Part shown: piece after piece, positions 426-63,242 of the stretch | Numbering within the stretch: position 1 is the first letter of the stretch | How the letters are laid out: each line of letters opens with the position of its first letter | From: Scenedesmus sp. PABB004 | Taxonomy: Eukaryota | Assembly (NCBI GenBank): GCA_014905635.1 | Contig: JABVCE010000002.1 | Location: forward strand, 1,302,001 to 1,366,000 | Reading direction: 5' to 3' | Length of the DNA stretch: 64,000 bases | Translations under genes and position numbers: made by a program | Notes under the pieces: model-generated | Seen by the model: the letters and a program-made list of their open reading frames with translations, nothing else | The model's database searches: none | What the model was told of the DNA's origin: nothing

Positions 426-1335
426 TCAGTGCGCCGCGCCCTCCGCCGCCGCTGCTGCCCGCTGCGCCGCCTTGTGCGAGTCGCCGGCCACCACGGAGCG
501 GATGCCCAGCTCGACGACGAGGCGGTCGTACGACGCCCTGTCGGCGGGCGAGGAGGGGGGGGGGGGACGAGGTGAGGCGGGCAGACGCCGGCAGACGCCG
601 AGTGGGCGCGGCGTCCCGCCGCCCCGGCGCGGCGTGGCGCGGCGCGGCGGCGGCGTGCGCGCCTGTTGGTGCGGTAGAGGTACTGCATGAGGCTCTTGCG
701 CTGCGCCAGCACCGCCTCGAGGCCGCGCTTGCTGCTCGAGTCCTTGCGGTTCTCCTTCAGGTGCGAGCTGATCTGCTGCACGCGCGCGGAGAGGCGCGCG
801 ATCTGCACCTCCGTGCTGCCCGCGTCGTTCGCGTGGCGCGCGTAGTTGGCGACCTTGGAGAGGTCCACGTTCTCCTTGTTCTTGAACGAACCGCTGCGGC
901 GGGCGGCGGCAGCGGCGGGGCGGCAGGCGGCCGTCGGCGGCCGGCGCGCGGGCGGCGGCGCCTCGCCGCCGCCGATGCTGCGGCCCGTTGCCACCGCCGC
1001 TGCTGCTCCCGCTGCTGGTGCTGCTGCTGCTTCGGGTGCCGCGACCGCCGGTGCCGGCGCCGCTGCTCGGCGCCGCCGCTGCCGCCGCCGCCGCGGCGCG
1101 CGCCGCCCGCGCCCCTCGGCTGCCCCGCGCCAGGGGGGCCTCACCAGATCTGCACGCGCGCCCGCTGCGGCCGCGCCGCTGCCGCCTGGCCGCGGGCGCC
1201 TGCGAATGGGGCGTCCGTGCGGCGCGGCGGCGTCAGGGCGGGCCCATTGGCGCGCGCAGGCGCGCCCGGAGGCGCTGCGCGTGCGTCCGTGCCCCGCGCA
1301 CCCGTCAGCGCGGGCCTCTGGCAGAGCGACGCCAT
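426..1335 (-). CDS. PRPS15: Plastid ribosomal protein S15 (nuclear-encoded, 4 exons)
   Basis: S15 core [69 protein letters not shown]; transit-peptide-like start [11 protein letters not shown]; last intron 662-538 is GC-AG. Confidence 0.92.
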
Positions 1336-1627
1336 CCCCTGGCTGCGCTGTGGCCGGCCGCTGCTGCTGCGCTCGCGCGGGGCGGCGGCAATGGCCAGCA
1401 GTCGGGGAGCGCACCGGGGAGCAATTGGCGGGCGTGGGCAGCGTGCAGCAGCGCCTGCGCGGCCAGGAGCGCCGCCCAGAACCCGGCGGCGAGGCCGACA
1501 CTACGCGCGCTGCGCGCTCGCAGCTCCCTCGCCACACCGCGACGCGCCCGTGCAGTGCCGGAGCTGCGGAGCGGCCTGAATTGACGGCCCCGCCGTCGAC
1601 AATCGGCCCACCCCTGCGCCCGGCCAC

Positions 1628-2946
1628 ATGCAGCTGCAGCAGCGCCTGGCCGGCCCGGCCGCGGGCGGGCGCGCCAGCGCGGTGAGACGCGCTGCTGACG
1701 GCGCCGCGCGCGGGCCTCGGGGCCCGCCGCGCGCGCGGCCGGCGCATCGGGCGGCCGCCCCGCCCTCACCGCGCCGCCCCCACGCCGCAGGCGCGCCCCG
1801 CGTTCGCCGCCGGCGTGGTGGCGCCGTTGCGCCGCGCGCAGCCGCAGCGCGCGGGCAGGCAGAGCTGCAGCCCGGTCTGCCAAGGTGAGGGCGCCTGCTG
1901 CCCGGCCGGGGGCGCCCGCCAGGGCCCGCCGGCCCGCGGGCTATGGCGCGGGGCGCGAGACAGACAGCGGGCCGCCAATGGGCCCCCGGCGGAGGCCGCG
2001 GCGGCGCCCGGCGGCGAGCAGCGGGCGCCGGCGGCCAGCGGAGCAGCGGGCGCCGGCCGGCGGCGAGCGGCGGCGATGCAGCGGACGGCGGCGGCCTCAG
2101 CAGCACCAGCACCAGCACCAGCACCAGCAGCACCAGCACCGCGCCAGCAGCGAGCCTGCAGGGGAGGGAGCCGGGGCCGCCGCGTCGCCACACCCCGACG
2201 CCGCCGCCGTGCCGTCACGCCGCTGCCGCGCCCCCGCGCCGCGCAGCCGCCGCCGCAGCCGCGCCGGCGCCTGCCGGCGACCTGCTGAACAAGTCCTACT
2301 ACCCCACGCGCGCCGACGCGGCCAACTCGGCCAAGCGCTGGTACATCATCGACGCGGAGGGGCAGACGCTCGGCCGCCTCGCGACGCTCGCGGCGACCTA
2401 CGTCAGGTGCGCCACCCCCCCCCCCCCGCCCCCCTGCCGCGGTCGGCAGAGGAAGCACGCCGCCGCGCGCGCGCCGCACGCGCTGCGCAGGCCTCGCCCG
2501 CCGCCGCGCGGCGGACCCCTCGGCGCCGCTCACGCGCCCGCGTCCGCCCCGCGCGCCCGCGCCGCGCTCTGCGCGCCCGCGCCCGCGCGCCCGCCCGCGC
2601 GCGCCCGCGCCGCGCCCGTCCCGTGCAGGGGCAAGCACCAGCCGACGTACTCGCCGAGCATGGACATGGGCGCGTACGTGGTGGTCATCAACGCCGACAA
2701 GGTCGTCGTCACCGGCAACAAGGCCGCCGACAAGACCTACTTCAGGCACGTCAACGGCCGCCCCGGGTCGTGGAGGATCGAGAGCTTCAACGAGCTGCAG
2801 AAGGTGCGGCCCCTCCTGCGGCGGCGGCCACGCGGGCGCGGGCGCACCCGGGGACGCGGACGGGCGCGCGGCGCTCGGGGGCGCGGGCGCCGCGGGCGGG
2901 CCGGCGCCGCCGCGGGCGGCGCGCGCCGCCGCCGCCGCCGCCGACG

Positions 2947-2981
<35 letters not shown>

Positions 2982-3201
2982 GCCCGCGCCGCCGCAGCGC
3001 ATCCCGGAGCGCATCATCGAGCGCGCGGTCAAGGGCATGCTGCCCAAGGGCCGCCTGGGTCGCGACATCCGGCTGCACCTCAAGGTCTTCAAGGGCACCG
3101 CGCACCCCCACGCCGCGCAGCAGCCCGTGGACATCACCAAGCAGATCAGCACGCGGCCGTCCAAGGTCCCCGCCGCGGTCGCGGGCAAGCAGCAGCAGTA
3201 G
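1628..3201 (+). CDS. PRPL13: Plastid ribosomal protein L13 (5 exons)
   Basis: L13 motifs [60 protein letters not shown]; transit-like exons from ATG 1628. Confidence 0.95.
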
Positions 3202-3552
3202 CGCGGCGGGGGGCGCGCGCTGCGGCGGGCGGGCGGGCGGGCGGCGCGGCGGGGACGCAGGTGGCGGGCTGGCAGGGTAACGTGGGGACCGTGCGCGAGG
3301 CGCGGGCGTCGCGCAGGGCCAGGGCTCGGCGCCGCTGGGCCGCCGCCGGCCGGCGCTGCCCGCTTGATCGGAGGAATGGCAGCCCCCTCCTCGCAGTCTC
3401 CGATCTGCTGCCCGCCCCCCGAGCGTGAGGAGTGCCGCAGCTGCGCGCGCCGAACTGCCGCCGCGGCACCCTGCGCGCTCTTGGCGCCCCCGCAGCGCCC
3501 GCCCGTCCAGCAGCGGGACGCTACACCGCACGTGTCGCTGCACCGGGCGCGA

Positions 3553-4962: not shown

Positions 4963-4997
<35 letters not shown>

Positions 4998-6181: not shown

Positions 6182-8099
6182 ATGCAGAGCAGCCTGCGGG
6201 GCCCCTGCAGGTCGGGCGCTCGGCCTGTCGGGCGCTCGGCCTCAGCAGCACCCGCTCGGCCGCCTGGCCTGGCGCTGCCGTGGCTGGCGCGGCGGCGCGG
6301 GCAGCCGCTGGCCACACCGCCTGCTGCGGCCACGGACGGCGCGCCGGCGTCGCTGGTGCTGGCGGGGCATGACCTGACACGCACCATCTTTGATGCCGTC
6401 GACGCGCGCGGCGCGGCCAAGCAGGCCGGCGGCGCGGGCGGGCGGACGACGTTTGAGGGGCTGCTCGCCGCGGACCAGGCCTGGTCGGCGCTGCGCACCA
6501 TGAAGGCGCGGCGCGGGCGCGCTCCAACGCGCCGGGAGCAGGCCTCACCCTGGCACAGGGGGCCCGCCACGGCCGGCCGAGGCGCGCCGCCGCCACTCCG
6601 CCCCGCACGCGCAGACCGGCGCCGACGCGGGCCCGCCGCCGAGCTTTGTGACGAGTGCGCCGCGGCAGTCGGTCGCGCGCGCGAGCGCCGCCGGCGCCGG
6701 CGCCGGCGCCGGCCCGTGCAGCTACGACGCCGTCGTCGCGGGCGGCACGCTCGGCGTGTTTGTCGCGGCGGCGCTCGCGGCGCGCGGCTGGCGCGTGGCG
6801 GTGGTCGAGCGCGGCCCGCTGGCCGGGCGCGCCCAGGAGTGGAACATCAGCCGCAAGGAGCTGCAGGAGCTGGTGGAGGTGCGTGCGGGGGGAGGGGGTG
6901 GAGAGGGGGCAGCGGCGCCTGGCCGGCCGCGCTGGAGGGCTCACCCGGCACTGCCGCTGTCGCAGCTGGACCTGCTCACGCCGGCCGAGGCCGAGTCGGC
7001 GATCGCTATCGAGTTCAACCCTGTTCGGGCCGGCTTTGCGGGCGGCAAGGGTGCGCGCGGCGGCGCGTGGGCGCAGGCGCGTCTGCGCGCCGCCGAGCGT
7101 GCTGCGCGGCCGCGCCACCTCCCGTGCTGCGCGGCCGCGCCTCCTCTGCGGGTTCCGGCTGAGACGCCGTCCGCGCCGTGCCCGTCCCTCCCTCCCTCCC
7201 GGCAGACGTGTGGACAAAGGACATCCTCAACCTGGGGGTCAAGCCCGACCGGCTCGTGCAACTGGTGCGGCGCGCCGGCGGGCAGCTGCGCGCGCTGGCG
7301 GGCGCCGCGCCGCGCCGCGCCGCGTGGTCCGACGCTGCGAGGGCCGACGCCGGTGGGCGGCCCACCACGCCACGCGGTCGCGCAGATGCGGGCCAAGCTC
7401 GAGGCGACGGGTGGCAAGGTGTACGAGTGCGTGCAGCTGGGCGGCGTGGAGGTGGCGGGCGACGGCGTGACGCTCACGCTCACCAGCCAGACCGCGCCCG
7501 GCGGCGGCGCCGCGCCGAGCGGCGGCGTCGGCGCGCGCGTGCAGTTTGCGTCGAGCCTGACCACGCGCCTGCTGCTCGACTGCTGCGGCCACGCGAGCCC
7601 GATCGTGCGGCAGCTGCGCTGGGGCGTCAAGCCCGACGGCGTGTGCCTCGTCGTCGGGGGCTGCGCGCGGGGGTTTGACCCCGAGGCAAACACGACGGCC
7701 GACATCATCTACACCTGCGGCGACGCGCGCCCCGTCGGCGCGGCCGCGGCCGCGGGCGGCGGCGGTCCAGGCGGCGCGTCGCAGGCGGCGCAGGCGGCGC
7801 AGGCGCAGTACTTCTGGGAGGCCTTCCCCGCGGCGGACGGCCTGCTGCCTGGCGGCGGCGCCGGCACGCGCGCGGGCGAGTGGCGCAGCGACGCGCGGAC
7901 GACCTACATGTTTAGCTACATGGACGCCCAGCCCAGCCGGCCGAGCCTGGCCCAACTGTTTGCCGACTACTGGGCCGCCATGCCGGAGTACCAGGGCCGC
8001 CCAGGCGGGCTGGAGGGGCTCGAGTTCCAGCGCCTGCTCTTCGGCTGCTTCCCGACGTACAAGGACTCGCCGCTCAGGCCGGGCTTCGACCGGTGCGCA

Positions 8100-8134
<35 letters not shown>

Positions 8135-11691: not shown

Positions 11692-13731
11692 TCAGAGCTT
11701 GGCGGCCCCGCCCAGCTGCAGCGCGTCGCCCGGCTGGCGCGGCGCAAAGAAGCTCTCCACCAGCTCTGGCGGCACCTGCGGGCGGCGGCGCCAGGCCCGG
11801 GTCGTCGTCGGCGGCGGCGGCGGCGCGCGGCCTCAGCCAGCCCCTGCTGCGCCGGGCGCCGCGCCGCGCCGCGCCGCGCCTGCTCGGGCCCCGCGTGCGC
11901 CCAGCGCGGCGCGTCGTCCTTGTCGACCAGCCGCGCGCGCACGCCCTCCACAAAGTCGCCGCGGCCGTCGCAAAAGTGGCCCGCCAGCAGCGCGTCGGTG
12001 GCGAGGCAGTCGAGGGGGCCGAGCGCGCGCGCCCGCGCGCGCCGGTAGTAGGCCAGCGTGACCGCGGCCGACAGCGGCGACCCCCTGCGCCGTGCGGCGC
12101 GGCGCGGCGCGGGGTGGGCGCGGAGCGGCGCGGGCGCGCGCGCGCCGGGGCCACGCGCGCACCGTTGCAGCGCCGCGAGCGCGCCGTCACAAAAGGCGCG
12201 CTGCGCCGTCTCGGCGCGCAGCGCGGCGGCGACCTCGGCCACGCTCGCGCGCCCGAAGCAGCGGTTGATGACCGGCAGCGCCGCGGACAGCTCGCCGGCG
12301 CCGTCGCTCGGGCTGTACGCAGCCGCCGCGCCGCCGGCGCCGCCGGGCTGCGCCGCCGCCGCCGCATCGGCCTCGATGCTGCGCAGAGCTGCGTCCACGG
12401 CCGCGAGGTCGCGCCCGCCGGCGCCGCGCGCCACCGCCGCGAGGCGCGGGCGCACGAGGTGCAGGTGCGCGCTCGGGATGAAGTGCGTGGCGAGGCCCGC
12501 CCACACCAGCTGCGCGCCTGCGCAGCGGGCGCGGGCGCGCCGGTCGCGGCCACGGGGGCGCCGCGCCGCGCGCGCGCGCGCGTGCGCACGCGCGCACGCG
12601 CGCGCGCACGCCAGGCGGCGGGGGCCGGCCGCGCACGCGGACACGCGTGGTCCGGGTCGCACCTGTCAGCCGCGCGCCTGTGAGCGCGAGGTATGCGCCG
12701 AGCTCCCCGGGCAGGTGCGGCAGCAGCGCCATCATGCCGACGTCGGGGAAGAGGCCGATGGCGCACTCGGGCATCGCAAACACGCTCCTGCGCGCCGCGC
12801 GCGGGCGCGCCGCGGTGGGGCGCCGCCCGCCCGCCCGGCGCCGCGCCTGCCCCCGCCGCGCGCGCGCGCGCGCGCACCGCTCGGTCGCGACGCGGAACGC
12901 GCCGTGCATGGCCAGCCCCGCGCCGCCGCCCATGACGATGCCGTCGAGCAGCGCGACCTGGCCCAGCCCCGCGCCCGCGAGGCACGCCACGTCGCCGTCG
13001 GCCGCGTACTCGGCGCGAAAGAAGGCCAGCGCGGCGCGCGCCTCCCCCGCCGCCACGTGCGCGGCGACCGCCTTGACGTCGCCGCCGGCGCAGAAGGCCT
13101 GGACGGAAGGGGCCGGGGAGGGGCGCAGCCGCGTGGTCGGGGCGCGCGGCCCGGCGAGGCTGGCCCGGCGCGGCGAGACGCGGCGCCGTGGCGCGCGCGC
13201 ACCTTGTCGCCCGCGCCCTGCAGCACCACCGCGCGCACGCCACTCCCCGGCGCGGCCCAGGCGGTGTAGAGCTGGTGCAGCGTGGTGACCATGTCGGTGT
13301 TGAGCGCGTTGAGCGCGCGCGGCCTGCGGCACGGCACGTGCCCGGCGCAGGCGTCGGCGCGGGGCTCGCGGCTGCGGCCTGCTGCGGGTGGCCGCCCCCT
13401 CCGGCTCGGACGCACCTGTTGAGCGTGATGACGCCGATGCCGTCCTCCACGGAGGCCAGCACCTGCGCAGGGCGGGCAGCAGCAGCGGTCGGCAGCGGCG
13501 GGGGCTGGGGCGACGCGGCCGTGCCGCGTCATCGCCCCGCCTGACGCGTCGCGTCGCGTGCAGTCGGTAGGCCGCGGCCCTGCTGCGTGGGGCGCGCGGC
13601 GGTTGCTGCCGGCGCACCGGCGGCTCCGCTGCCGCCATGCTGCTGCTCGCCGCGCGCCGCGCGCAGAGGAGGCGCGAGACCGCGCTCAAGCTCGAACGCG
13701 ATGGAGGGCGTGGCAGGCGCGCCACGAGCAT
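11692..13731 (-). CDS. HIBCH: 3-hydroxyisobutyryl-CoA hydrolase-like (crotonase family), 8 exons
   Basis: ITLNRPRALNALN, AFCAGGDVK, DGIVMGGGAGL, FAMPECAIGLFPDVG, YLALTGARL, GLATHFIPS, DFVEGVRARLVDKDDAPRW; mitochondrial-type presequence. Confidence 0.92.
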
Positions 13732-14003: not shown

Positions 14004-14047
<44 letters not shown>

Positions 14048-16789: not shown

Positions 16790-16839
<50 letters not shown>

Positions 16840-19783: not shown

Positions 19784-22363
19784 ATGTCGCAGCCCTACGC
19801 GGGCTACACCTGGCCGCCGGGCTACGGCTACCCGCCGCAGCAGCAGGCGCCGTCGGCAGCCCCGCACGGCAGCTACGCCGGCTGGCCGGGCTACGCCCAC
19901 CCGCAGCAGCAGCAGCAGGCAGCGTACGACCCCGCGTACGCGGCGTGGTACGCGCAGCAGGCGCAGGCGCAGCAGGCGCAGCAGGCGCAAGCACAGCAGG
20001 CGCAGGCGCAGCAGGCGGCCGGGGCGCCGCCGCTGCCGGCCGAGGCGCCGCCGCCGCTGCCGCCCGGGGCCGGCGCGGCGCCCGCGGCGGCGACGCCCGG
20101 CGCGGCGCAGGCGCAGTACCAGCAGCCGTACGCCGCCTACGCGTACACGCCGCAGCAGCAGGCTCAGGCGCAGGCGCAGGCGCAGGCGCAGGCGCAGCAG
20201 CAGGCCTACGCCGCCTACGCCTACCACAGCGCGGCGCAGCACCAGCAGGCGCAGCAGGCCCAGCAGCAGCAGGCACAGCAGCAGGCGCAGGCGCAGGCGC
20301 AGGCGCAGGCGCAGGCGCAGCAGCAGGCGCAGGCGCAGCAGGCGCAGGCGCAGCAGCAGCATTCGTACGCTAACGCATACGCCCCGCAGGTGGTGACGGC
20401 GCCCCCGCCCGCGCCCTCGCCCGCGCCCGGGGGCACCCCCGACTACTCCCGCATGCCGCCCCCCGCCTCGCTCGGGACCCCCGGCGCGCGGCCGCCGCTG
20501 TGCGGCGCCGCGCCGCCCGCCGGGGCGCCAGCGGCGTCGCCCGTGGTCGAGGCCATGCGCGCGGCGGCGGCGGCGGCGGCGAGCCGGGCCGCGACGGGCG
20601 GCGTGCCCGCGCCCGCGCCCGTGCCCGCGCCCACCCCCGCCGGCGCCCCGGTCGCCGGAAGCCATCACGCGCCGCTGTTCGTGTCGGTCGGCGGCGCCCC
20701 TGCGGCCGCGCCGGGCGCCGCCGCGGCGGTGGCGGCGGCGGCGGCGGGGGCGGCGGCCGCGGCGGCGGCGGCGGCGCAGCAGCAGCAGGCGGCGGGCGAC
20801 CTGCCCAAGTCGCTGCAGCAGTTTGTGGCGCGCGCGCTCGCGCTGCTCGGCCGCAGCAACGAGACGCGCGCGGAGCTGCGCACGGTGCTGCGTGACGTGA
20901 TTGCGAAGCACAAGAAGGAGGGCACGCTCTGGAGCACCGACTGGGACCGCCAGCCCCTGCCGACGCTCGCCAGCGCGGCGCACCTCAACGTGAGCATCGA
21001 AGCCGCGGGCCGCGCCGGCGCCGCCGCCGCCGCCGGCGGCGGGCGCGGCGGCGTGTGGGACCGCCTCGGCGCCGGCGCCGGCGCCGGCAACAAGCGGGCG
21101 CGCGGCGACGGCAGCGGCAGCGGCAGCGACGACGATGAGGAGGGCGACGCGTACGGCAGCTGGGGCCGCGGCCGCAAGCAGCGCGTCGAGATCGCGAGCC
21201 CCGGGTCGGGCAGGAAGGGGCAGAAGGGCAAGAAGGGCAAGAAGGCCCAGTGGGCGGCGGCGGCGGCGGACGAGGCGTGGCCGGTCGACCCGGCCGAGGC
21301 GGCCAAGGCGGCCGCGCGCAGCGCGCGCTTTGCCGGCGCGGGGCGCGGCCGCGGCCGCGGCGGCGGCGGCACGCTCGCGGCGTACGGCTGGGACGAGCGC
21401 GGCGTGGCGAACGACGAGTTCATCGTCGGCACGAGCGGCAAGCTCGAGAAGGGCTACCTCCGCCTCACGCGGCCGCCGCTGCCCGAGGAGGTGCGCCCGC
21501 AGCGCGTGCTGGCCGTCGCGCTGTCGCGCCTGCTGGGGCTCGTGGCGTCCAAGGGCGACAAGTACCTCTACTACAACGACCAGTTCAAGGCGATGCGGCA
21601 GGACCTCACCGTGCAGGGCATCAAGAACGACTTCACCGTGCAGGCACGCGCCGCGCGCCCGCGCCCCGCGCGCGCGCACCCCACCCGCGCGCGCGCGCCC
21701 GCCCCGCCCGCGCGCGCCCGCGCGCGCCCGCTCACGCCCGGCCGCCCTTCGCGCGCGCGCCGCGCGGCGCTCAGGTGTACGAGGCGCACGCGCGCGCGGC
21801 GCTCGAGTACGGCGACGGCGCCGAGTACAACCAGTGCCAGACGCAGCTCGCCATCCTCTACGCGTCGGGCCTGCCCGGCGCGCACGCCGAGTTTGGCGCG
21901 TACCGCCTGCTGTACCAGAGCGTGCACGCGGCCGCGGGCGAGGGCCGGCGCCTGCTCGGCACGCTGCGCCAGCTGCTGGGCAACAAGGTCGGCGCCGTCG
22001 CGGACGCGCCCGAGGTGCTGCACGCCATGCAGGTGCGCGACACGCCCGCGCGCGCCGCGCGCGCCGCGCTGCGCGGCAGGCCTGAGCCAGGCCGCCGCAC
22101 GCGCCGCGCGCCCACGCGCCGCGCCGCGCGCGTCAGGTGCGCGAGGCGCTCGCGGCGTCCAACGCGGGGCGCTTCTTCGCGCTGTACGCCACCGCGCCGC
22201 GCCTGGGGCGGCGCCTGATGGACGTCGCGGTCAAGCCGCTGCGCTGGCGCGCGCTCAACACGCTCGTGCGCGCGCACAAGCCGCTGCCGCTGCCGCTGGC
22301 CTTCCTCGCGACCTGCCTCGGCTTCCTGCTGCCGCCGGAGCCGCCCGCGGAGCAGCAGCAGGC

Positions 22364-23488: not shown

Positions 23489-24884
23489 TTACCACTGCGC
23501 CGCCGCCCACGGCCGCCAGCCGCGCGCGTACGCCTGCAGCGGCGCCGGCACGGCCGCCAGGTCGTCCGTCGTCAGGGGCGGCCCGCTGACGGCGACCAGG
23601 TTGGCGGCGTGGCCCGTCACCATGCTGCAGCAGTTGAGCTGGCCTTCAAACGCCTCGGCCATGGCCGCCAGCGCGGCGCGCGTGGTGGCGGCGTGGGGGT
23701 CGCCCGCGGCGCGTGCTGCGTCGGGCGCCGCGCCCAGGTTGGCGATCGCGCGCCCGCCCGGCGCCAGCCGCGCGCGCACGCCGCGCCACGCGTCCGCCTG
23801 CGGCCGGCCGGGGCGCCCGCGTCGGCAATTGGGCGGGCCGTGCGGCGTGTGCCGCGCCGGCGCCGCGGCCGCGGCCGCTGGCCGTTCCCGCGCGCGCGCG
23901 TCGCGCCTCTGTGAGCTGCGGGATGAGCGCGGCGCGGGCAAAGAGGTCCACGACGATCCCCGCCGCGCCCGCGGGGCCCACGCTCGCGGCGGCGGCGTCG
24001 AGCGCGTCGCCCACGTGCACGACCTGCGCGCGGCGCGGCGACGCGACGTGCGCCTCGGCCCCGCTGCTCGCGCGGCGCTGGGCGGCGGCGGGGCCGCGGG
24101 GCCGGGCGGCGGCGGGGCCGCGCGGCCGCGCACCAGCGCGCCGTCGCGCACGAGCGGGGCGAGGCCCATGTGCTGCTGCGCGAGCTCCACGACCGCCGCG
24201 TCCAGCTCCCAGCCGTGCGTCACGCGGCCGGGGAAGAGCGCCGCCACCAGGTGCGCGACCGTCCCCGCGCCGAGGCCGAGCACGGCGAGCGGCCCCGGCG
24301 GGCACCAGGCGGGCAGCACGGCGAGCGCGTCCCTGCGGCGCGCGGCGGCGGTGAGCCTCGGCGCGCGCGCCGCGCGTCTGCTAGCTGGTGGCGCCCGGCC
24401 CTGCGCACCAGTACGCGCCCGTCAGGGGCTGCCCGGCGCGGTAGACCGAGTGCAGGTTGCCTGCGCGCGCAGCGCCGGCGCCGCCGCGGTGAGCGCGGGT
24501 GAGCGCGGGCGAGCGCAGCGGAGCCCGCCGCGCCCCGGCGGCTGGCCGCCCGCGCGGCGCGCGGCCGCGCCCGCACCCGAGCTGTCCAGCAGCAGCACGC
24601 GCGCGCCTCGGACTTCGGCGGGGAAGTGGCGCGTGTCCGGCACCTAGCGTGTTCGGCCGCCACTGTCAACGGCCAGCCGCCGGCGGCGCGCGCGCGGGCC
24701 GGGGCGCGCGCACCTCGTAGACCGCCACGACCTCGTTGTGCTCGCTGTCCAGCTGCCCCAGGCACACCGGCTCGGGCTGCGCCCTGCAGGCCGCCGCGGC
24801 GCGACGGCGGCAGCGGCGCTGCGCCGGCCACGGCGCCGGCCGCGCCGCCGGCGCGCCGGCCGCTGCTGCGCCTGAGACCCGCAT
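23489..24884 (-). CDS. SAM-dependent methyltransferase of the spermidine-synthase-like fold, probably plastid-targeted (6 exons)
   Basis: RVLLLDSSGNLHSVY, TGAYWD, LAVLGLGAGTVA, GWELDAAVV, VHVGDAL, IVVDLF, LAPGGRAIAN. Confidence 0.85.
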
Positions 24885-43870: not shown

Positions 43871-45126
43871 TCAGCTCCACTTGAGGAAGAAGGCGAGCAG
43901 GGCCAGCACCTGGTCGCCGCACTTCCAGGCGAGGCCGTAGGCCATGATGACCCACCACTCCATCTGGCCCGGCCCCGGCAGCCGCCCGCCCTGCCACGCG
44001 AGGAGGCAGTAGGGCACGAGCACGCTCCACAGCAGGCTCGCCGGCACGACGACCTGGTAGCACACCGCAAACGCGAGCGGCACGAGCAGCCTGCGCGGCG
44101 GCGGGCCGGTGGCGGCGGGTCGGCGCGGGGTTGGCACAACGCGCGGCGGCAGCGCGCGGCCGGCGGCGGCGCGGCCGGCGGCAGCGGCGGCGGCGCGGCT
44201 GCACGGCGGCGGCGGCAGCGGCGGCGCGCCTGTCCATGGCAAAGACCTCCCAGAACCAGCGCTCGTTCTCGGTGCGGTTGCGGAACGCCCACACGCGCTC
44301 GCCCTCGCTGAGCAGGAAGTGCTCGTAGGCCTGGCTCTCAAACAGCGCGCGCCAGCGCGCCGCCGCGGCCGCGGGGAGCGTGAGCGGCGCGAGCACGAGC
44401 GCGCGGAGCGCGCTGCGCAGCTGGAACACGGTCAGCGCGAGGAGCTTGACGCGCGGGCGGTGCAGCTGCGCCGCCGCGGCCAGCATGTCGCTGACGACCT
44501 GCGGCGCGGGCGCGGCGCGGGCGCGGTCAGCGCGCGCCGGCGGCGGCGGCGGCGGCGGGCGCTGCTGCGGGGGCCGGCGCGCCCCGCTGCGGCCGCCGCG
44601 GAGCGCGCCTGCTTGTCCTGCTCCACCGCCTGCGCCTGCAGGGCTGGGCTCTGGTCCATCTCCTCTACGCTCTTCCGCCTGCGCAGCAGCACGGCGCCGG
44701 CGGGGCAGGGGCCGCGCGCGTGGGCGGCCGCCACCGCCGCCGCCGCCGCCGCGCCATGCCCGCGCTCTGCCGCGCGGCGCCGGCGCGGCGCCGCACCGCG
44801 CCGCCATGCGCGCCTCCTCCAGCCGGTCCTCCTGCAGCTTGATCTGCGCGTCGAGCTTCTTCACGATCTCGGGCGGCTCCTGGCGCTTGCGCGTGAGGTC
44901 CAGGTACTGCCGGCGCTTGCTGAAGAACTCGCGGAACTTGAGCGACCAGTAGGCCGAAAAGTCGGCCTTGCTCGGGTTCTCCCGCTCCGGCGCGGGCTCG
45001 TCCTTGCCCGCGCGCGCGCGCCACCGCGCCGGGCAGCCCGCCGGCGCGCGGGGGCGCGGCGCCGGCGCCGCCGCGGGGCGGCGCGCGCGCGCGCGCGGCC
45101 GGCGGCTGCGCCGCCGCTGCCTGCAT
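43871..45126 (-). CDS. Uncharacterised coiled-coil plus C-terminal multi-TM protein; start uncertain
   Basis: Coding-like exons KADFSAYWSLKFREFFSKRRQYL..., RNRTENERWFWEVFAMD|RLLVPLAFAVCYQVVVPASLLWSVLVPY...EWWVIMAYGLAWK...FFLKWS*; TGTAAC at 43786-43791; the nearest ATG (45126) is out of frame. Confidence 0.7.
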
Positions 45127-47355: not shown

Positions 47356-49475
47356 ATGGCGGATCCGGCGCAGCTGCTGGAGGACGAGTACGAGGAGGTG
47401 GTGAGCCCGGGGCTGGGCGGCGGGCGCGCGCGGCAGCATTCGACGGGCAGCAGACGATCGCCGCTGCTGCCGGCGTGCTGGCCCCGCGCCCGGCCGCACC
47501 CGCGCTGCCAGGGACCGGCTCGTGCCCGTGCCCACGGCGGGCGCACCGCAGCGGTGCCAACGCCCCGCCGCGGCAGCCACCGGCGGCGGCCGCCGGCCGG
47601 CGGCAGCAGCAGCAGCAGCCGCGGCGCCGGCCGCCCGGCACGCGTCGCAGCGGCGCGGGGCCCACGCCCCCGACGCGGCGGCGCCCGCAGGAGTATGACG
47701 AGGAGGACGAGGCCGAGATGGTGGACGACGAGGAGGAGACCGACCCCGACTTTACGCCCGGCGACGCCGAGGCGGACGAGGACGAGGACGAGGACGTCAG
47801 CCTCGAGGAGGAGGAGGGCCTGGACGGCCTCTCCGACACCAACGCGCCCTACGCCGATGCCGGCGCGGTCGGCGGCGGCGGCAAGCGCGGTGCGCGGCCG
47901 GCGTGGGCGGCAGAGGCGGCCGGCGCGGCGGCCGGCGCGGCGGCCGGGCGCCGCGCTCACGCCGCCCGCGCCGCGCCGCAGGCGGGCTGGGCAACCCGCT
48001 GAAGCTGCTGGGCAACCTGCGCCCGAAGCGCCTCGCCGCCGCGGTCACGGGCCAGCGCGAGCGCCTGCAGCGCCTGCTGTGGCGGCTGGAGGACGCGAGC
48101 GTGTTCACAGCCAAGTTTGCGGCGCGCGCGCTCATCAAGGGCGCGCGCCCCGCGCTCGTGTGTGAGTGCCCGCCGCCGCCGCGCGGCCGGCCAGCCCCGG
48201 CGCAGGGCGCGCACGCGCCCCAGCTCCGCGCCGCGCCGCGCCCACGCGCCCGCGCGCCCGCGCACTCGCCGGCGCGCCTGCAGGGCTGGTCGTCGCGCGC
48301 GCGCTGCGCACGATTGACCGGTCGGAGGACCTCGGGCTGCGCATGATGCGGCAGCCGGCGCACAAGCAGATGGACTACTACTACAGCCACCTGCTCGGCG
48401 ACGACTGGGAGCAGCAGCTCGAGCAGGCGCGGCGCGCGCCGCCGCGCGCCGCCGCGCGCCTGACCGCCCGCGCGCGCGCACGCAGGCGGGCCCGCCGCCG
48501 CCAGGGCTCACGCTCAAGCTCACGCGCGCGCCGTGCAGGACTTTGTGGACGCGGTGGCCGAGGTTGACGAGGGCTACATCACCGACGACATGGTCCGCGA
48601 GCGCCGCGGCCTGCAGGCGACCATCCTGCGGCGCCTCGAGGTCGAGGAGTGGGACAAGGAGCGCATGCGGTGAGGACCCCGCGCCGCGCCGCGCCGCCCC
48701 GCCCCGCCCGCGCGCGCGCGCGCGCCGCCGCGGCCGCCGCGGCCGCCGCCGCGGCCGCCGCGGCCGTCCCTTTGACCGCCCCCGTGCCCCGCGCGCCCCG
48801 CGCGCCCCCCTTGCGCGCCGCGCGCCTGTCAGTCACTTTTACTACGGCCTCTACGGCCTGGGCCCCTGGTACTGGGACATGGAGGAGCGCCTGCACAACC
48901 CCTTCTTCATCGGCGCGCGCGCCTGGAACGGCCCCGCGGAGAGCTGGATCGGCGAGAACCAGGCGCGCCCGGGCCCGGGCCCTGCCGCGGCGGCGCGCGG
49001 GCGGCGCGCGGGCGGCGCGCCCGCCGGGCCCCCGCACCGGCCGACGCCGCCCGCGCCCCGCGCCCCGCCCGCGCAGGTCTTCCCCGGCGACATGGAGCCC
49101 GCGAGCCGCGACGCGCGCCTCGCCGTCGCGCAGCGCCTCGAGGACGCGCGCGGGCGGCCGCTGTCGCGCGGCGCGCTCAACCGGCTGCTGGCGAGCGAGC
49201 GGGTGGGCGGCGGCGGCGGCGCGCCGGCTGCGCGCGGGGGGTCTCGGGCGCCGTCAGCGCGCGGCTGCGCGCGTGCGCGTGCCGCCCGCGCTCACGCGCG
49301 CGCCTCTCTGCCCCTCCTCCTGCCGCAGGTGCGCGGCGCGGACCAGGTGCTGGCGGGCCGCCTGCTGCAGGGCGCGGGCGACCCCGTGCAGGTCAAGCTG
49401 CGTATCGAGCAGCAGCGGGAGGAGCGGGAGCAGCAGCAGCGGCAGCGGGAGCAGCAGCAGCAGGTGGCAGCCTGA
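47356..49475 (+). CDS. Uncharacterised protein with acidic N-terminus and aromatic-rich core (8 exons)
   Basis: Exons join in frame: MADPAQLLEDEYEE, a D/E tract, DYYYSHLLGDDWEQQLEQ|DFVDAV, EEWDKERMR|HFYYGLYGLGPWYWDMEERLHNPFFIGARAWNGP. Confidence 0.75.
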
Positions 49476-54894: not shown

Positions 54895-57800
54895 ATGGCG
54901 GGCCGGGGCAGATCGGTGAGCGGGGATTGGGGCGGCATGCCACCTCGCTGCGGGCGCAGCAGCCTCCCGCCGCCCTCCCGCGGCGACGCGTGCCGCTCTG
55001 CGGCGAGGCCGTGGCACCGCCGCTCTCGAGGCGCCGCGAGCGCCTCCGCAGCAGCGCCGGGCGGCCGGCGCGGGCGCTGGGCGCGGCCGCGTGCTGCTGC
55101 TCGCCGCCGCCGCCCAGCGCGGGCGCCGCCGCCGGCCCCGCAGACGTTCAAGATAGAGCCCTTCAAGCACCCCATAGCCATGGACCCCAACTACGCGGGT
55201 GCGGCGGCGCGCGGGCCGGCGGCGCCGCGGCGGGCGCGGTGGGCGGGGGCGGTTGGCGGCGCAGCGGCGCTGCTGCGGCCGCGCCAGGCGGCGGCCGCGG
55301 CGGCGGCGGCGGCGGAGCCGCGCCGGGGCCCCCTTGAGCGCGGCGCCGCGCGGCGCGGCGTCCGCGGCGCAGACAAGACGTGGCGCATCCTGGAGAGCGC
55401 GATCAGGGAGATCCACAACCAGAACGCGAGCGGGCTGAGCTTCGAGGAGCTCTACAGGCGCGCGCGCGGCGCGGCCCCGGCGGCCCCGGCGGCAGCGGCG
55501 GCGGCCGCCTCACAGCCGCGCCGCCGCGCGCGGCGCCCGCCCTGTCGTGGCGCGCGCGCTTGCAGGAACGCGTACAACATGGTGCTCCACAAGTACGGCG
55601 ACCGGCTGTACAGCGGCGTCGCGGCGGCGCTGCGGGGGCACCTCGCGGGCGTCGCGGCGCGCGTGGAGGCGGCGCAGGGCGTGCCGTTCCTCAAGGAGCT
55701 CAAGGCCTGCTGGGACGACCACAACAAGAGCACCCAGATGATCCGCGACATCCTCATGTACATGGACCGCACCTACGTCACGCAGCAGCACAAGACGCCC
55801 GTGTTCCAGCTCGGACTCGACCTCTGGCGCGAGCAGGCGCGCCGCGGCGCGCGCGGCTGCTGCGGCGTCGTCGGCAGCTGCTGCGGCTGTGGCAGCGGCG
55901 GCGGCGCACCGACGCGCCGCCCGCACGCGCCCGCGCGCGCGCGGCCAGGTGGTGCGGCACCCGCAGATCCACCAGCGCCTGCTGAGCATCCTCGGCGACA
56001 TGGTCGCGCGCGAGCGCGGCGGCGAGATTGTGGACCGCGCGCTGCTTAAGTCCACGACGCAGGCGCGGGCGCTGCGCCTGCACGTCCCCCGCGCGCGCAG
56101 CGGCGGCGCCCGCGTGCGCAGCGGCGCCGACGCGCGGCGCCGCGCTGGCGCGCCACGCGCGCGTGCGCAGATGCTGATGGACCTGGGCAAGCCCACGTAC
56201 GAGGAGGACTTTGAGCGCCACTTCCTCGCCGCCGCGGCCGACTTTTACGCCAAGGAGGCCCTCGAGTTCATGGCCAGCAGCAACGCGCCAGACTACATGC
56301 GCAAGGCGCGGCGCGGCGCGGCGCGGCGCGGGGGAGCCGCTCAGCCCCCTCGGCCCGGCGGCGGCGCGCGCGACTGGGCAGCACCGCAGCGGCAGCGCGC
56401 CACGCCTGCGCGGCAGCCGCCGGCCGCGCTTTGCCCGGCCGCCGACGCGCGCGTGCGCTGCGCAGGCGGAGCGGCGGCTGGCGGAGGAGGTCGAGCGCGT
56501 GCGCAGCTACCTGGACGAGTCGACCGAGCCCAAGATCACGCGCGTGGCGGAGCACGAGCTCATCACCGTGCAGGTGGGGTGCAGCACGCGGCAGGCAGGC
56601 GGCGGACGTGGCGCCGCGCGCGGGCGGGCGGGTGGGGCTGGGCGTGCAGCGTGGCGCGGCGCGGCGCGCCGCCCCGCGGCGTGCCAACCCTCTGCGCGTG
56701 CCCGCGGCGCGGCGCGCAGATGAAGGCGCTGGTCGAGATGGAGGGCTCGGGGCTGGTGCCGCTGCTGCTGGACGACGCGTACGACGACCTGGGGCGCATG
56801 TACAGCCTCTTCAGGTGCGCGGGGGACTGCCCAGGGGGCTGGTGACTGGCTGCGCCGGTCGCTGGCAGGGGCGGTGCGAGGTCGGCGGCGCGGGCGGCGC
56901 CCGCGGACGGCTCACCGCCGCCGCCCCCGCGCCGCGCCAGGCGCGTGGACGAGGGGCTCGCGCTGCTGCGCAGCGTGATGGGCGCGCACGTCAAGGAGGA
57001 GGGCCGGCTGCTCGTGAATCACCCGGACAAGACCAAGGACCCGGTGGAGTACGTGAGCGCGCTGCTGGACATGCGGGACAAGTACGAGGCGACCATCACC
57101 CGCGCGCTGCAGGACGACAAGACCTTCCGCAACACGCTCAACCAGGCACGCCGCGCCGCGCCGCGCCGCGCCGCGTAGGTCTGGACCTGCCGCCGCCCCC
57201 CCCCCCCCCCCCGCCCTGCCCTTCCCCCGCACTCACCGCCGCTTTCTCGCTGCTTCCCTCACCGCCGCCCCCCCCCCCCCCGGCCGCTCCCTCACTGCTG
57301 CTCCCCCCCCCCTCTCCCCCCTGCCACGCCGCGGCAGGCGTTTGAGGTCTTCATCAACGGCCAGGGGCGCAGCCCGGAGTTCATCTCCCTCTTCATCGAC
57401 GACCGCCTGCGCAAGGGCCTCAAGGGCGCGAGCGAGGGCGACGTCGAGGCGGTGCTGGACAAGGTCATGGCGCTCTTCAGGCGCGCCGCGGCGCGGGGGC
57501 GCGGGGGGGGGGGGGGGGGCGGTGGTCTCGGGGGCTGCGCGCGGCGGCGCGGGGCCGCGGCGCGTGGCGGCGCGCGTCGGCGGGCGCGCGGCGCCGGCGC
57601 GCGCTGCGCCTGCCGCGCGCCGCGCTCACGGCCCTGCTGTCGGTCTGCCTGCCTGCCGGCCTGCCTGCCTGTCCCCGCGCCGCGGCGCGCCCGCAGGTAC
57701 CTGCAGGAGAAGGACGTGTTTGAAAAGTACTACAAGCAGCACCTCGCCAAGCGCCTGCTCTCGGGGCGCACCGTGTCGGACGGTGCGCCGCCACGGCGCG

Positions 57801-59454
57801 CAGCTCGCGCGTCGCCGCCCCGCGCCGCCGCGCCGCGCCGCCCGCGCGGCCCCTCCCACGCCGCCGCGCCGCCACCCACCACGCCGCCCGCCAGATGCGG
57901 AGCGCAATATGCTGGTCAAGCTGAAGACCGAGTGCGGTTACCAGTTTACGAGCAAGCTGGAGAGCATGTTCACCGACATCAAGACCAGCCGCGACATGAT
58001 GGCGGACTTCAAGGCCCGCCTCGCCGAGCGCGGCACGGAGCTGCCGCTCGACCTCAGCGTGCAGGCGAGGCGCCGCGCCGCCGCCGCCGCCGCCGCCGCG
58101 CGCGCGCTGGCCGCACGGCCGCGCTCGGGAGCCCGGCCGCCTGACGCCGCCGCCGCGTGCCGTCCGCGCCGCGCGCAGGTGCTGACCACGGGCAGCTGGC
58201 CCACGCAGGCGACGGCAAAGTGTGTGCTGCCGCTGCCGCTGGAGCAGGTGCGGCGCGTTGGGCGCGCGCGCGGGGCGGGCCCGCGCGCCACAGTCACGCC
58301 GGGGCCTGGCCTGGCCTGCACGCGCGGACCCGCGCCCGCGCCGCGCCGCGCCGCCTGCCCCCGCCGCCCAGGCCTGCGAGGCGTTCCGCGAGTTTTACCT
58401 CGCCGCGCACAGCGGGCGGCGGCTGAGCTGGCAGACCAACATGGGCACCGCCGACCTGCGCGCCGCGTTCAGCGGGGGCAAGGAGAAGCACGAGATCACG
58501 GTGGGTGGGCGCGTGGGCGGCGGGGTGTGTGTGCGTGTGGGTGTGGGTGTGTGTTTGGGGGGGCAACAGGGGCCCGGGCGGCGCGCCGTCGCGCGGCGCG
58601 CCGCTGGCTCGCACCGGCCGCCCCAGCCGCCGTGTGGCGCGCCCGCCCTCCCACGCGCCCGCCCACACCCACACCCCCCCCCCCCCCGCCCGGCCGCCAG
58701 GTGTCGACGTACCAGATGGTCGTGCTGCTGCTCTTCAACGACGCGGCCGAGCTGACCTACCGCGAGATCGCAGAGGCGACCGAGATCCCGCACGCAGACC
58801 TCAAGCGCAGCCTGCAGAGCCTCGCCTGCGCCAAGGGTGCGCCGCCGCCGGCCCGCCCCGCCGCCCGCCGGCCCGCCCGGCCCTGCCCGGCCCGACCGCG
58901 CCCCCGCCCTCCTCCTGATCCCCCCCCCCACACACACACACACACGCACCCCCCCCCCCCCCCGCGCGCAGGCAAGAACGTGCTGCGCAAGTCTCCGATG
59001 GGCAAGGAGGTGGACGAGGGCGACAGCTTTGCCTTTAACGACGCCTTCACCAGCAAGCTCTTCAAGATCAAGATCGGCACCGTCGCCGCGCAGAAGGAGG
59101 GCGAGCTGGAGAAGCAGGAGACGCGGCACAAGGCGCGCCACCGCGCCGCGCCGCCCGTCACGCCTGCCCCGCGCGCGCCGCGCCGTCGCCCGCGCCGTCG
59201 CCCACTCCGCGCGCACACCGCGCTCCCAGGTCGAGGAGGACCGCAAGCCCCAGATCGAGGCCGCGATCGTGCGCGTGATGAAGGCGCGCAAGCGGCTCGA
59301 CCACAACGCGGTCGTGAGCGAGGTCACGCGCCAGCTCGCGCCGCGCTTCCTGCCAAACCCCGCCGTCGTCAAGAAGCGCATCGAGTCGCTCATCGAGCGC
59401 GAGTTCCTCGAGCGCGACCCGGCCGACCGCAAGGTCTATGTCTACCTCGCCTGA
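54895..59454 (+). CDS. CUL3: Cullin-3 (17 exons)
   Basis: [122 protein letters not shown] at 59600. Confidence 0.98.
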
Positions 59455-59668: not shown

Positions 59669-59695
59669 GAGGGTCGCCCGCGCACGCGCTGCCCG

Positions 59696-61119: not shown

Positions 61120-61462
61120 CGCCGCGGGCCGGTGCCGGGGTCGGCGGCGGGCACGGCGGGGGCGCGGCGGTGGTGGCGTGGCTGCTGCTGCGGCTGGGTG
61201 CTGGGGCCCGGGCGGGGCGCGCCGGGCGAGCACGCCCATTTCGCCGCCGCCGACCGGCCGCCTGCCGTCGCGGTTTTTTGCAGCCGCGCGGCGCGCCGCT
61301 GGGGCTGCCGGCGCGGCTCCCGCGCCCCCGCAGCGATCGCGGCCGACCAGCACGCGCGTGGCAGGCGCCGGCGCGGCCCACGCCGCCAGTCGGACGCGCA
61401 AGCGGGGCGAATGGCCGCCCCGGCCGCCTGAGCGCCGGCGGTGCCCCTGCGTGGCGGTCGCG

Positions 61463-63242
61463 ATGCCGCAGACCGGTGGCTTCCTGGCAAAGCTGGTGCG
61501 GGAGCGCCCGCGCCCGCCGGCGGAGGTGCTGCCCAAGCTGGTGGCGAGCCTGCAGGCGCTGGAGGTCCCAGGCCGCGGCGAGCGGGCGGGCGAGAAGGAG
61601 CAGGCGGCGGTGCACAAGTACCTGACCTACCTCAAGCTCGCGCTCTTCGGCGACGACGCCCACCCCGCGCCGAGCCAGCCCACGGCCGAAATCGTGAACG
61701 CCCTGGTCCACGACGTCGTCAAGACCGACTTCCAGCTCCTCCTCGTCCGCAACCTGGCGGCCCTGGACTTTGAGGCCCGCAAGGACGCGGCCCTGGTGTT
61801 CGGCGCGATCGTGCGCATCAGGGACGCTGCGGACGCCTGCCCCGGCGCCGCCTACGTGCAGGCGCACCCCGAGATCCTCGACATGCTCTTCAACGGGTGC
61901 GCCGCCCGCGCCAGCACGCCGGCCGCCCGCCGCGGCGGGGGCGCTCGCGCCCGCGTCGCCCGCGCTGCGCCGCCCGCAACCTCCGCGCCGCCCGCGCCCG
62001 CGGCGCAGCTACGACGACCCCTCCATCGCGCTCAACTGCGGCAGCATGTACCGCGACTGCATCCGCGACGAGGCGCTCGCCAGGTGCGCGCGCGCGTCGG
62101 CCGGCGCCGCGGGCGCGCGGGCGCTATGGTCGGCGGGCGGCGACGGCGCGCGCGGCGGCGCGCCGACCGCGTGCGGTGCGCCGCGGCAGGCTGGAGCTGT
62201 ACGGCGACAACTTCATGGAGTTTTTCCGCCGCGTGGAGGTGGCCAACTTTGAGATCGCGAGCGACGCGTTCTCGTCGTTCAAGGTGCGCCGCCGCCGCCG
62301 CCCGCGGCTGCAGGGCCAGCCCTGCGCGCGAGCGCGGACCAGCGCGGCGCGGGCGCAGCGCCCCCGCAGCGGCGGCCTCGCGGGACGCCGCCGCCCCACG
62401 CCCGCCCGCCCGCGCGCCCGCCCGCACGCGCCCGGCAGGACCTGCTGACGCGTCACAAGCCCGTGGTCGCGCAGTACCTGCAGGACAACTACGGCCCCTT
62501 CTTTGACGCCTTTGCGGGGCTGCTGCAGTCGAGCAACTACGTCACGCGCCGCCAGTCGCTCAAGGCGCGGGGGCGGGCGGGAGGGGTCACGCGGGCGCGC
62601 GCACCGCGGCAGCGGCGGCGGCGGCGGGCCCGCCGCCCGCGCGGGCCCGCCCCGACCCCTCCCGCCGCGCCGCGCCGCGCAGCTGCTGGGCGAGCTGCTG
62701 CTGGACCGCTCCAACGTGCGGCTGATGATGCGGTACGTGAGCGACGTGAAGAACCTGATGCAGATGATGAACATGCTCAAGGACAGCTCGCGCAGCATCC
62801 AGTTTGAGGCCTTCCACGTCTTCAAGGCGCGCCACCGCCGCAGCGCCGCAGCGCAGCGTGCAGCCAGCCGCGCGCGCGGGCCCGCCCGCCCGCCCGCCCG
62901 CGCGCGCGCCGCGACGCCGCGCCCTCGCTGCTGCGCTCTGCAGGTGTTTGTCGCAAACCCCAGCAAGCCGCAGGCGATCGTCGACATCCTCACCAACAAC
63001 CGCGACAAGCTGCTCAAGTACCTGGAGGACTTCCACACAGACAGGGGTGCGTGCGAGCTGCACGCCGCCCGCGCCTGCTCCGCTGCGGTGGGACGGGGCG
63101 CCGTGCTGTGGGGACGGCCCCGCGCCGAGACGCGCGGCCGCGCGCGCCGCGCGCCCCCGCGCGCCGCGCAGACGAGGACGAGCAGTTCAAGGAGGAGAAG
63201 GCGGTCATCATCCGGGAGATCTCCCTGCTCGGCCGCGAGGCC

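Follow-up and report, generated by a model that had tools for sequence, protein, structure and literature searches.

Abundant GC-AG introns behind an exonic AG in a 64-kb window of the Scenedesmus sp. PABB004 genome

The window, by which we mean the whole 64 kb stretch of DNA analyzed here, carries genes for ribosomal protein S15, a CruP-like protein, a 3-hydroxyisobutyryl-CoA hydrolase-like protein, a SAC3/LENG8-like protein, a cytochrome P450, a ribose-5-phosphate isomerase, an Exo_endo_phos protein, an ABC1 kinase-like protein, a PECT-like cytidylyltransferase, a 3-ketoacyl-CoA synthase (KCS), cullin-3 and MO25, along with genes that lack a family match. The window is matched by NCBI protein P0019 of Scenedesmus sp. 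PABB004, to which it aligns over 546 aa at 100% identity. The G+C content is 79.5% in the window and 78.5% in the genome, for which the table in PMC12571836 lists only 7,092 annotated genes, and these values place PABB004 with the very GC-rich nuclear genomes that are the setting of an expanded GC-AG class. The introns reach 88% G+C (A 5.5%, T 6.1%), and on the plus strand of the window the GC dinucleotide is about six times as common as GT (13,895 against 2,227). Stop-to-stop open reading frames of at least 150 aa number 286 in the window and are of no use for gene finding at such G+C. An Rfam scan of the 64-kb window returned no family at the gathering score, and no snRNA gene was found in it.

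Introns were placed by two routes. In the first, orthologous proteins, some of them derived from the transcriptomes of relatives, were aligned with a spliced aligner that charged GT and GC donors equally; in the second, single exons were located by their coordinates on protein-family profiles or solved structures. Homology was required of every counted site, because GC dinucleotides are so common here that false calls do arise. The resulting set comprises 53 introns from this one 64 kb window, as distinct from a genome-wide sample. GC donors open 15 of them (28%; Wilson 95% interval 18-42%), the orthologue alignments contributing 12 among 34 introns and the profile or structure coordinates 3 among 19. 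The acceptor is AG in 53/53 and CAG in 52/53, and introns with a GC donor and an AG acceptor make up more than 10% of those placed in the window. The sequence-only reading had set its proposal of frequent GC-AG introns against a level of about 1% in most eukaryotes, a figure that agrees with passages of PMC2490688. At the level of sequence and homology, the abundance of GC-AG introns in the window is confirmed.

Three of the 15 GC-AG introns were fixed by exon coordinates. In the S15 gene (minus strand), a phase 2 intron at 538..662 opens with cag^GCGCGC, the caret marking the exon–intron boundary, and closes with ACAG. The upstream exon covers positions 9-71 of the 86 in profile TIGR00952, and the split codon with the 14 residues of the next exon supplies 72-86, so that profile length supports the donor at 662, one of seven examples named in the sequence-only reading. 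The consensus GT donor (G^GTG[ACG][CG]) is absent from 60 nt upstream to 90 nt downstream of that site. In the SAC3/LENG8-like gene, the phase 0 intron at 21644..21774 (plus strand, cag^GCACGC) separates exons whose adjoining residues correspond to residues 138 and 139 of the solved structure 9dlr_A (PDB). The phase 0 intron of the PECT-like cytidylyltransferase at 38512..38637 (minus strand, cag^GCACGC) lies where the exons meet between positions 19 and 20 of PF01467, 21 and 22 of TIGR00125, and 33 and 34 of TIGR02199.

Spliced alignment fixed the other 12, all on the plus strand. The KCS gene has two, at 41675..41811 (10/10 orthologues) and 42797..42957 (donor by 10/10, acceptor by 9/10). 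The cullin-3 gene, absent from the examples of the sequence-only reading, has eight. The first, at 55458..55565 (phase 2), was chosen by 8/10 orthologues in gapless alignment; the remaining seven, at 55837..55948, 56063..56170, 56306..56465, 57146..57337 (GCACG), 57481..57696 (phase 2), 58065..58178 (GCGAG) and 59133..59229, were each chosen by 10/10, and in the alignment to the Tetradesmus cullin the junctions are gapless. The MO25 gene contributes 62565..62682 and 62827..62943 (10/10 each). With 21644, both KCS donors and both MO25 donors, five of the seven examples singled out earlier are thus fixed by homology. GC donors account for 8/15 introns of cullin, 2/8 of KCS and 2/6 of MO25 in the spliced alignments, each with 8-10/10 orthologues. 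Cullin is an outlier (8/15 against 7/38 elsewhere, p = 0.018). Transcript-derived orthologues lack the GC-AG intervals, two of which, both in KCS, are also spliced out in the NCBI model P0019. The exonic AG repeats the AG that ends the intron, and mRNA or protein alone is therefore compatible with boundaries shifted by 1-2 nt; with that proviso, GC begins and AG ends the intron at the protein-restoring boundaries of all 15 junctions. The GC-AG boundary was picked because GC-AG is a known intron class.

With the aligner restricted to GT donors, the score fell by 226-272 units for cullin, 78-141 for KCS and 45-87 for MO25. When decoy dinucleotides were allowed in the place of GC, GC gave the largest gain in each gene: 272 against at most 189 in cullin, 130 against at most 108 in KCS, and 45 against at most 23 in MO25. 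An ab initio parse with a high intron penalty recovered 28/29 training introns and was used only to propose junctions; on the training genes it made 3 extra calls, unverified or wrong, all of them GC. Under the strict consensus it gave 29 GC donors among 129 introns, and the removal of one false and two doubtful calls leaves about 26 of about 125 (21%), of which 11 are placed solely by consensus and ab initio parse. The earlier hand count, about 26 GC donors among roughly 115-120 introns, comes close to this figure. An unconstrained ab initio parse was dropped, as it merged genes and chose mostly GC donors (162 GC among 219 'introns' in its largest merged plus-strand model).

Further GC-AG introns are candidates. 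The one in the CruP-like gene at 6506..6614 (plus strand, aag^GCGCGG), also named in the sequence-only reading, is plausible in that donor and acceptor fit the consensus, yet only 2/12 homologues choose it. It sits in the poorly conserved N-terminal part, where decoy dinucleotides score as well as GC, and the homologues are too divergent for alignment to fix either 6506 or the region 7725-7800. The strict-consensus ab initio parse puts forward ten more. On the minus strand these are 11776..11879 in the 3-hydroxyisobutyryl-CoA hydrolase-like gene, where the upstream exon runs up to position 322 of the 335 in ECH_2 and the downstream exon is too short for a match; 29429..29596 and 29846..30043 in the cytochrome P450 gene, both in frame and stop-free; 33112..33233 in the ABC1 kinase-like gene; 37645..37774 in an unconserved linker of the PECT-like gene; and 23798..23906, 44091..44229 and 44499..44608 in genes without a family match. 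On the plus strand, 48427..48538 and 48963..49076 likewise fall in genes without a family match. Per-exon Pfam and NCBIfam scans gave no decision for the junctions of the P450, ribose-5-phosphate isomerase and Exo_endo_phos genes, for most of the PECT gene, for the last hydrolase junction or for the ABC1 junction at 33233. Among solved structures, the N-terminal P450 exons around 29846..30043 found no match, and the upstream ABC1 exon found no relative, only chance antibody matches. One ab initio call was rejected: the GC donor at 12677 in the hydrolase gene (CAG^GCGCGCG) is an exonic decoy 15 nt upstream of the donor of a GT-AG intron at 12518..12662 (minus strand, ACAG^GTGCGA at 12662). Use of 12677 costs 5 profile positions in two profiles, and the GT at 12662 restores them.

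The donor context separates the two classes sharply. Exonic AG stands at -2/-1 of all 15 GC donors, as had been claimed for every such donor, and of 18/38 GT donors (Fisher p = 2.8e-4); put the other way, GC is found at 15 of the 33 donors that follow AG and at 0 of the 20 that do not. The GC donors read GCGCG (11), GCACG (3) or GCGAG (1), the three forms given earlier. GT donors had been described as following varied bases, which holds at -2 (A 19, G 11, C 6, T 2) and fails at -1, where G stands in 36/38. Position -3 is C or A in 15/15 GC donors and 32/38 GT donors. Between the classes there is no difference at the intronic positions +3 to +5, and over all 53 donors these are G in 48/53 at +3, C in 45/53 at +4 (background 48%, p = 2e-8) and G in 52/53 at +5. 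The donor positions at which GC introns lie nearer to consensus than GT introns are thus exonic ones. A strand asymmetry is seen in gene regions: AG^GCGCG occurs 52 times in sense and 28 times in antisense, against 394 and 470 for GCGCG after a non-AG exon end. The consensus of U12-type donors is [AG]TATCC; none of the 15 GC donors has it, which excludes that class. The GC donors are in phase 0 (12) or phase 2 (3), and none is in phase 1.

We consider it likely that these are ordinary U2-type GC-AG introns which GC-biased substitution at +2, tolerated only with full exonic pairing, has raised to a major class with a share of roughly 20-30% among the introns of the window. Strong substitution pressure, which either mutation bias or biased gene conversion could supply, would push the T at +2 to C. 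The resulting C-A mismatch with U1 snRNA would be tolerated only where -2 and -1 pair fully, as argued from the canonical U1 sequence rather than that of PABB004, and donors after other exon ends would be held at GT by selection. Some preference for T appears to persist even after AG, where C makes up 45% of +2 and 89% would be expected from intron composition if the position were free (p = 2e-9). Third codon positions are almost never A, so phase-1 donors would rarely have A at -2, and the lack of GC donors in phase 1 would follow from this. Codon phase may thus limit which introns can change their donor.

The direction of change is suggested by the cullin gene. At residue 54 (the phase 2 intron at 55458..55565), 16 distinct metagenome loci of 37-45% GC have a GT donor, and at residue 145 (55837..55948) one lower-GC locus (L033) has one, with codon position and phase in agreement in both cases. 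Because lower-GC loci have GT at the same positions, GC is probably derived at 55458 and 55837; the T-to-C direction rests on these two positions and on distant relatives (at most 66% protein identity). The metagenome scan for cullin relatives found none above 66% identity, and those found were mostly intron-free, which left two intron positions to compare. The sequence-only reading had GC pressure convert the U at +2 to C wherever exonic pairing compensates. The confinement of GC to donors after AG and the GT at the two cullin positions in lower-GC contigs fit this proposal, but 'wherever' is too strong, as 18 of the 33 AG-context donors still have GT.

An alternative is that the splicing machinery itself has changed, in the U1 5' end, the U6 ACAGAGA box, U1-C or Prp8, so that it recognizes G(U/C)GCG directly and splices GC donors almost normally. 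In its fuller form, this reading would have the entire 5' splice-site code moved to (C/A)AG^G(U/C)GCG(C/G), with co-evolved U1 and/or U6 snRNA or U1-C, for example through a U1 base changed opposite the conserved +4 C or through less strict reading of +2. After AG, a GC donor would then serve nearly as well as GT, which would make PABB004 a natural example of a spliceosome adapted to extreme GC. In favor of such a change, the intronic side of GC and GT donors alike is unusual and tightly kept from +3 to +5, and C at +4 is unpaired with canonical U1. Yet other chlorophycean algae commonly have GTG(A/C)G donors, which counts against adapted machinery, and GT remains the majority even after AG. 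The need for exonic AG, without exception in GC donors and not shared by GT donors, is the mark of compensation for a mismatch at +2 and argues against a U1 that pairs with C there. We regard an altered machinery as unlikely, and the shift of the whole code as equally so.

Selection could instead maintain GC donors for their weakness, as sites of regulated or alternative splicing or of intron retention, as has been proposed for mammals. Passages of PMC2490688 tie GC donors to alternative splicing, those of PMC4028052 describe many GC donors together with much intron retention in Emiliania huxleyi, and several candidate GC introns here, such as those of the P450 gene, are in frame and stop-free. 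The 15 homology-fixed sites, however, are flanked by constitutive, highly conserved exons in housekeeping genes, and median intron lengths are equal in the two classes (GC 125 nt, GT 125.5 nt), which makes a regulatory origin quite improbable. Least credible of all is an artefact, either of introns misplaced where GC is ubiquitous or of T-to-C errors in the assembly: the excess of GC dinucleotides, the yield of the unconstrained parse, the spurious GC introns that single homologues give in low-complexity tails and the decoy at 12677 show how false calls come about, but the 15 counted sites have exact junctions from 8-10/10 orthologues or independent profiles, GC outscores every decoy dinucleotide in cullin, KCS and MO25, all 15 sites share an exonic AG that is invisible to the aligner, and random base errors would not hit +2 of 15 donors all after AG.

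An abundance of GC donors is already described in other GC-rich algae, a precedent absent from the sequence-only reading. For the haptophyte E. huxleyi, passages of PMC4028052 put GC donors at 56% in a curated set of 241 junctions and at 61-65% in sets based on RNA, and ascribe them to GC content. Like PABB004, E. huxleyi combines a nuclear genome rich in GC with a major class of GC donors, keeps the AG acceptor and misleads gene predictors. In contrast, the GC share of E. huxleyi is higher (over half) despite a lower genome GC (65% against 78.5%), the organism belongs to a different supergroup, and its junctions are RNA-verified whereas those of PABB004 are inferred from proteins. The exonic AG rule seen in the PABB004 window finds no mention in the E. 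huxleyi passages of PMC4028052. Among pelagophytes, predicted GC-AG frequencies are about 14-17% in Aureococcus anophagefferens and about 14% in Pelagomonas calceolata, ascribed to high GC, and 0.32% in the lower-GC relative Aureoumbra lagunensis (passage of bioRxiv 10.1101/2024.10.30.620910). Unlike PABB004, these pelagophytes are stramenopiles whose genes contain few introns; the figures are from gene prediction, and the passage is without donor context. Among the papers covered by literature searches on GC-AG introns and on the strain name, none reports such a class for green algae or PABB004.

Animals and land plants have few GC-AG introns (under 1-2%); these are likewise U2-type, with GC in the place of GT at +1/+2, and conversion of GT to GC at conserved positions is documented there. 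The frequency in the PABB004 window is 10-30 times higher. The intronic part reads GCGCG here and GCAAGT there, and compensation is here wholly exonic (AG preceded by C or A at -3). A link to alternative splicing has been drawn for those rare introns.

With the present window, the relation of GC-AG frequency to genome GC would come to include a green alga whose nuclear genome is among the most GC-rich on record. The clean split between 0/20 and 15/33 may show how far mutation pressure erodes the most conserved splice-site base before selection stops the erosion. For annotation, a gene finder that admits GT-AG only, or GC-AG as a token, would model about a quarter of the introns here wrongly, rising to about half in cullin-like genes, and one with free GC donors invents introns; the rule AG^GC(G/A)(C/A)G offers a usable filter. 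In the single NCBI model compared, P0019, one in-frame intron is retained as coding.

The window has a G+C content of 79.5% and is tightly packed with multi-exon eukaryotic genes, the nearest proteins in a protein search coming from Sphaeropleales. Its open frames matched Pfam families for ribosomal proteins S15 and L13, DTW, SIR2, ECH_2 (3-hydroxyisobutyryl-CoA hydrolase-like), a PHD/AAA protein, SAC3/GANP, P450, ABC1, a PECT-like cytidylyltransferase, KCS (3-ketoacyl-CoA synthase), an Exo_endo_phos protein, cullin, ribose-5-phosphate isomerase and MO25. The PABB004 genome is reported as 39.8 Mb with 78.5% GC and 7,092 genes (PMC12571836). Open frames are uninformative on exon limits in this genome, since stop codons are too rare at such a GC content for frames to mark exons in the window. 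One 997-codon open frame (27908-30898, minus strand) covers several P450 exons together with their introns of 198 and 168 nt, which keep the frame and contain no stop codon. The plus strand holds 13,895 GC and 2,227 GT dinucleotides, a ratio of six to one, so that a chance GC "donor" is available almost anywhere. We therefore wrote a protein-to-genome spliced aligner (BLOSUM62, affine gaps, all three intron phases, obligatory AG acceptor), which penalized GT and GC donors equally and ignored the flanking bases, and ran ten orthologues per gene through it. We also trained a small ab initio parser with 29 introns from cullin, KCS and MO25 and used it to propose further junctions. Each predicted exon was scanned singly against Pfam and NCBIfam, and junctions passed when profile positions ran on consecutively from one exon's end to the next exon's start, counting the split codon. 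Verification rests on the window sequence and homology.

The spliced alignments gave 15 solid introns in cullin-3, each with 8-10 of 10 orthologues, and eight of these have GC donors (55458, 55837, 56063, 56306, 57146, 57481, 58065 and 59133); the junctions are gapless in alignment to the Tetradesmus protein. GC donors also begin two of the eight KCS introns (41675 and 42797) and two of the six MO25 introns (62565 and 62827). Restricting the aligner to GT donors cost 226-272 score units for cullin, 78-141 for KCS and 45-87 for MO25. As a control, GC was replaced by another dinucleotide as the permitted donor; the score gain was largest for GC in all three genes, and in the CruP-like gene GC had no advantage. 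Decoy dinucleotides also gained score, because a one-base boundary shift costs little; score alone therefore does not make the case for GC donors, which depends on exact junctions and on their context. All five solid introns of the CruP-like gene are GT, and site 6506, chosen by two of 12 homologues, lies where the homologues are too divergent to decide it. NCBI's protein model for KCS, P0019 ("CUT1 [Scenedesmus sp. PABB004]"), is 100% identical to the window over all 546 residues and is itself spliced at both KCS GC donors. It takes as coding a 117-nt in-frame GT-AG intron (40578-40694, plus strand), which six of nine other KCS orthologues (about 460-530 aa) remove at exactly these boundaries. 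In contrast to this KCS model, no PABB004 cullin protein was found among all 16 protein-search matches and no PABB004 MO25 protein among the best 120 of 651; the searched collection may lack the two genes, or the public annotation may model them wrongly.

Three more GC donors were fixed by profile or structure. At 38637, in the cytidylyltransferase gene, three independent profiles meet exactly at the junction. At 21644, in the SAC3/LENG8-like gene, the flanking exons abut on a solved structure (chain 9dlr_A), the upstream one reaching residue 138 and the downstream one beginning at 139. For the S15 donor at 662 the support comes from profile length. All six of the KCS, MO25, SAC3 and S15 sites had been named by the sequence-only reading. 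Profile coordinates likewise fixed 15 GT introns, in L13 (2), DTW (1), SIR2 (5, one off by one position), AAA (2), ECH_2 (3), ABC1 (1, off by one) and the cytidylyltransferase (1).

Altogether 53 introns were fixed, 38 GT and 15 GC, a GC share of 28% (Wilson 95% interval 18-42%), with 12 of 34 by orthologue alignment and 3 of 19 by profile and structure. In animals and plants the GC-AG share lies below 1-2%. Cullin is an outlier (8/15 versus 7/38 in the rest of the window, Fisher p = 0.018). The spread is uneven, from 8/15 in cullin (55070-59451, plus strand) to none of the verified introns in SIR2 (0/5), CruP (0/5) and ECH_2 (0/4). A second parse, permitting GC donors in the strict context only, predicted 129 introns, 29 of them GC; removal of one known decoy and two in implausibly long introns leaves about 26 of about 125 (21%). 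This parse presupposes the AG rule and is therefore no test of it. Independently of the parse, AG|GCGCG occurs within gene regions 52 times in sense and 28 in antisense, and GCGCG after other exon ends has no sense excess (394 versus 470). The earlier count of 26 among 115-120 introns in 13 genes agrees with these figures, six genes having verified GC donors and seven more having candidates only.

The exon ends in AG before all 15 GC donors, compared to 18 of 38 GT donors (Fisher p = 2.8e-4); equivalently, GC makes up 15 of 33 donors after AG and none of 20 after other exon ends. The sequence-only reading had proposed this rule and the same three pentamers, GCGCG (11), GCACG (3) and GCGAG (1), and both hold. 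Its "varied bases" before GT donors apply at -2 and fail at -1, which is G in 36/38. GT donors mostly read GTGCG or GTGGG. Both classes together have G at +3 (48/53), C at +4 (45/53, far above a background of 48%) and G at +5 (52/53); canonical U1 pairing does not account for the +4 C. The acceptor is CAG in 52/53, with a single AAG at 10494, and the introns measure 78-222 nt (median 125) at 88% G+C. Twelve GC donors are in phase 0, three in phase 2 and none in phase 1, where two of 10 donors have AG context; scarcity of A at third codon positions would explain this absence.

After AG, GC is observed at 45% of donors versus 89% if +2 followed intron composition (p = 2e-9), and therefore either T is still preferred at +2 or equilibrium has not yet been reached. 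The intronic part of the donor, itself drifted to GCG, would be unable to compensate for a +2 C, so that the exon would bear the whole burden. A U1 adapted to pair with C at +2 is an improbable alternative, because such a U1 would have no need of exonic AG; the conserved +4 C speaks for it. An Rfam scan of the window found no snRNA family reaching its gathering score. Exonic compensation has a parallel in the rare GC-AG introns of other organisms, where other donor positions lie nearer the consensus and are taken to offset the T-to-C change (PMC2490688); the pattern is like that in the window.

Metagenome contigs were scanned using the cullin alignment; the scan gave no close relative, and most matches were intron-free. 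At residue 54 (phase 2) the intron donor is GC in the window and GT in 16 distinct metagenome loci of 37-45% GC, in each case after AG; at residue 145 (phase 0), again GC in the window, it is GT in one locus (L033). These comparisons point to GC as the derived state at both positions. High GC-AG shares in GC-rich genomes are already published: in E. huxleyi GC donors account for 56% of a curated set of 241 junctions and for 61-65% in RNA-based sets (PMC4028052), and GC-AG makes up about 14-17% in Aureococcus and about 14% in Pelagomonas (bioRxiv 10.1101/2024.10.30.620910), both papers ascribing them to GC content. Literature searches covering GC-AG introns in green algae, Scenedesmus, Chlamydomonas and algae generally, and the name of strain PABB004, gave no report for green algae or the strain; the supplementary tables of the plant survey PMC6310983 might carry per-species figures. 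Thus the abundance in the window is real and well marked, and is not a new mechanism.

The pattern is useful for annotation. Placement by hand or program without homology over-calls GC donors in the window. The parser called a hydrolase (ECH_2) donor at 12677 (CAG|GCGCGCG), rejected since two profiles then fall five positions short; by sequence reading the true donor is ACAG|GTGCGA at 12662, the exon continuing 15 nt past 12677 and restoring the profile positions. The parser's three extra calls on its training genes were all GC. In the cytidylyltransferase gene (38333-38376, minus strand) its GC donor at 38333 departs from the consensus and extends the protein by about 11 residues past the WVDEV motif; a consensus GT donor at 38369 (cgg|GTGAGA) is likelier. 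In the ab initio ABC1 kinase model a 346-nt "intron" (32088-32433, minus strand) separates profile position 191 from 204 and is followed by 72 residues with no profile match; a small exon was probably missed here, at the point where the conserved His-Pro-Gly-Asn motif of the kinase would be expected. Spurious GC introns also arose in low-complexity tails with single homologues. Long Gln- or Ala-rich coding runs (CAG/GCG repeats) at 16700-17000, 19800-20400 and 63200-63400 sit within otherwise conserved genes and draw spurious "introns" in spliced alignment.
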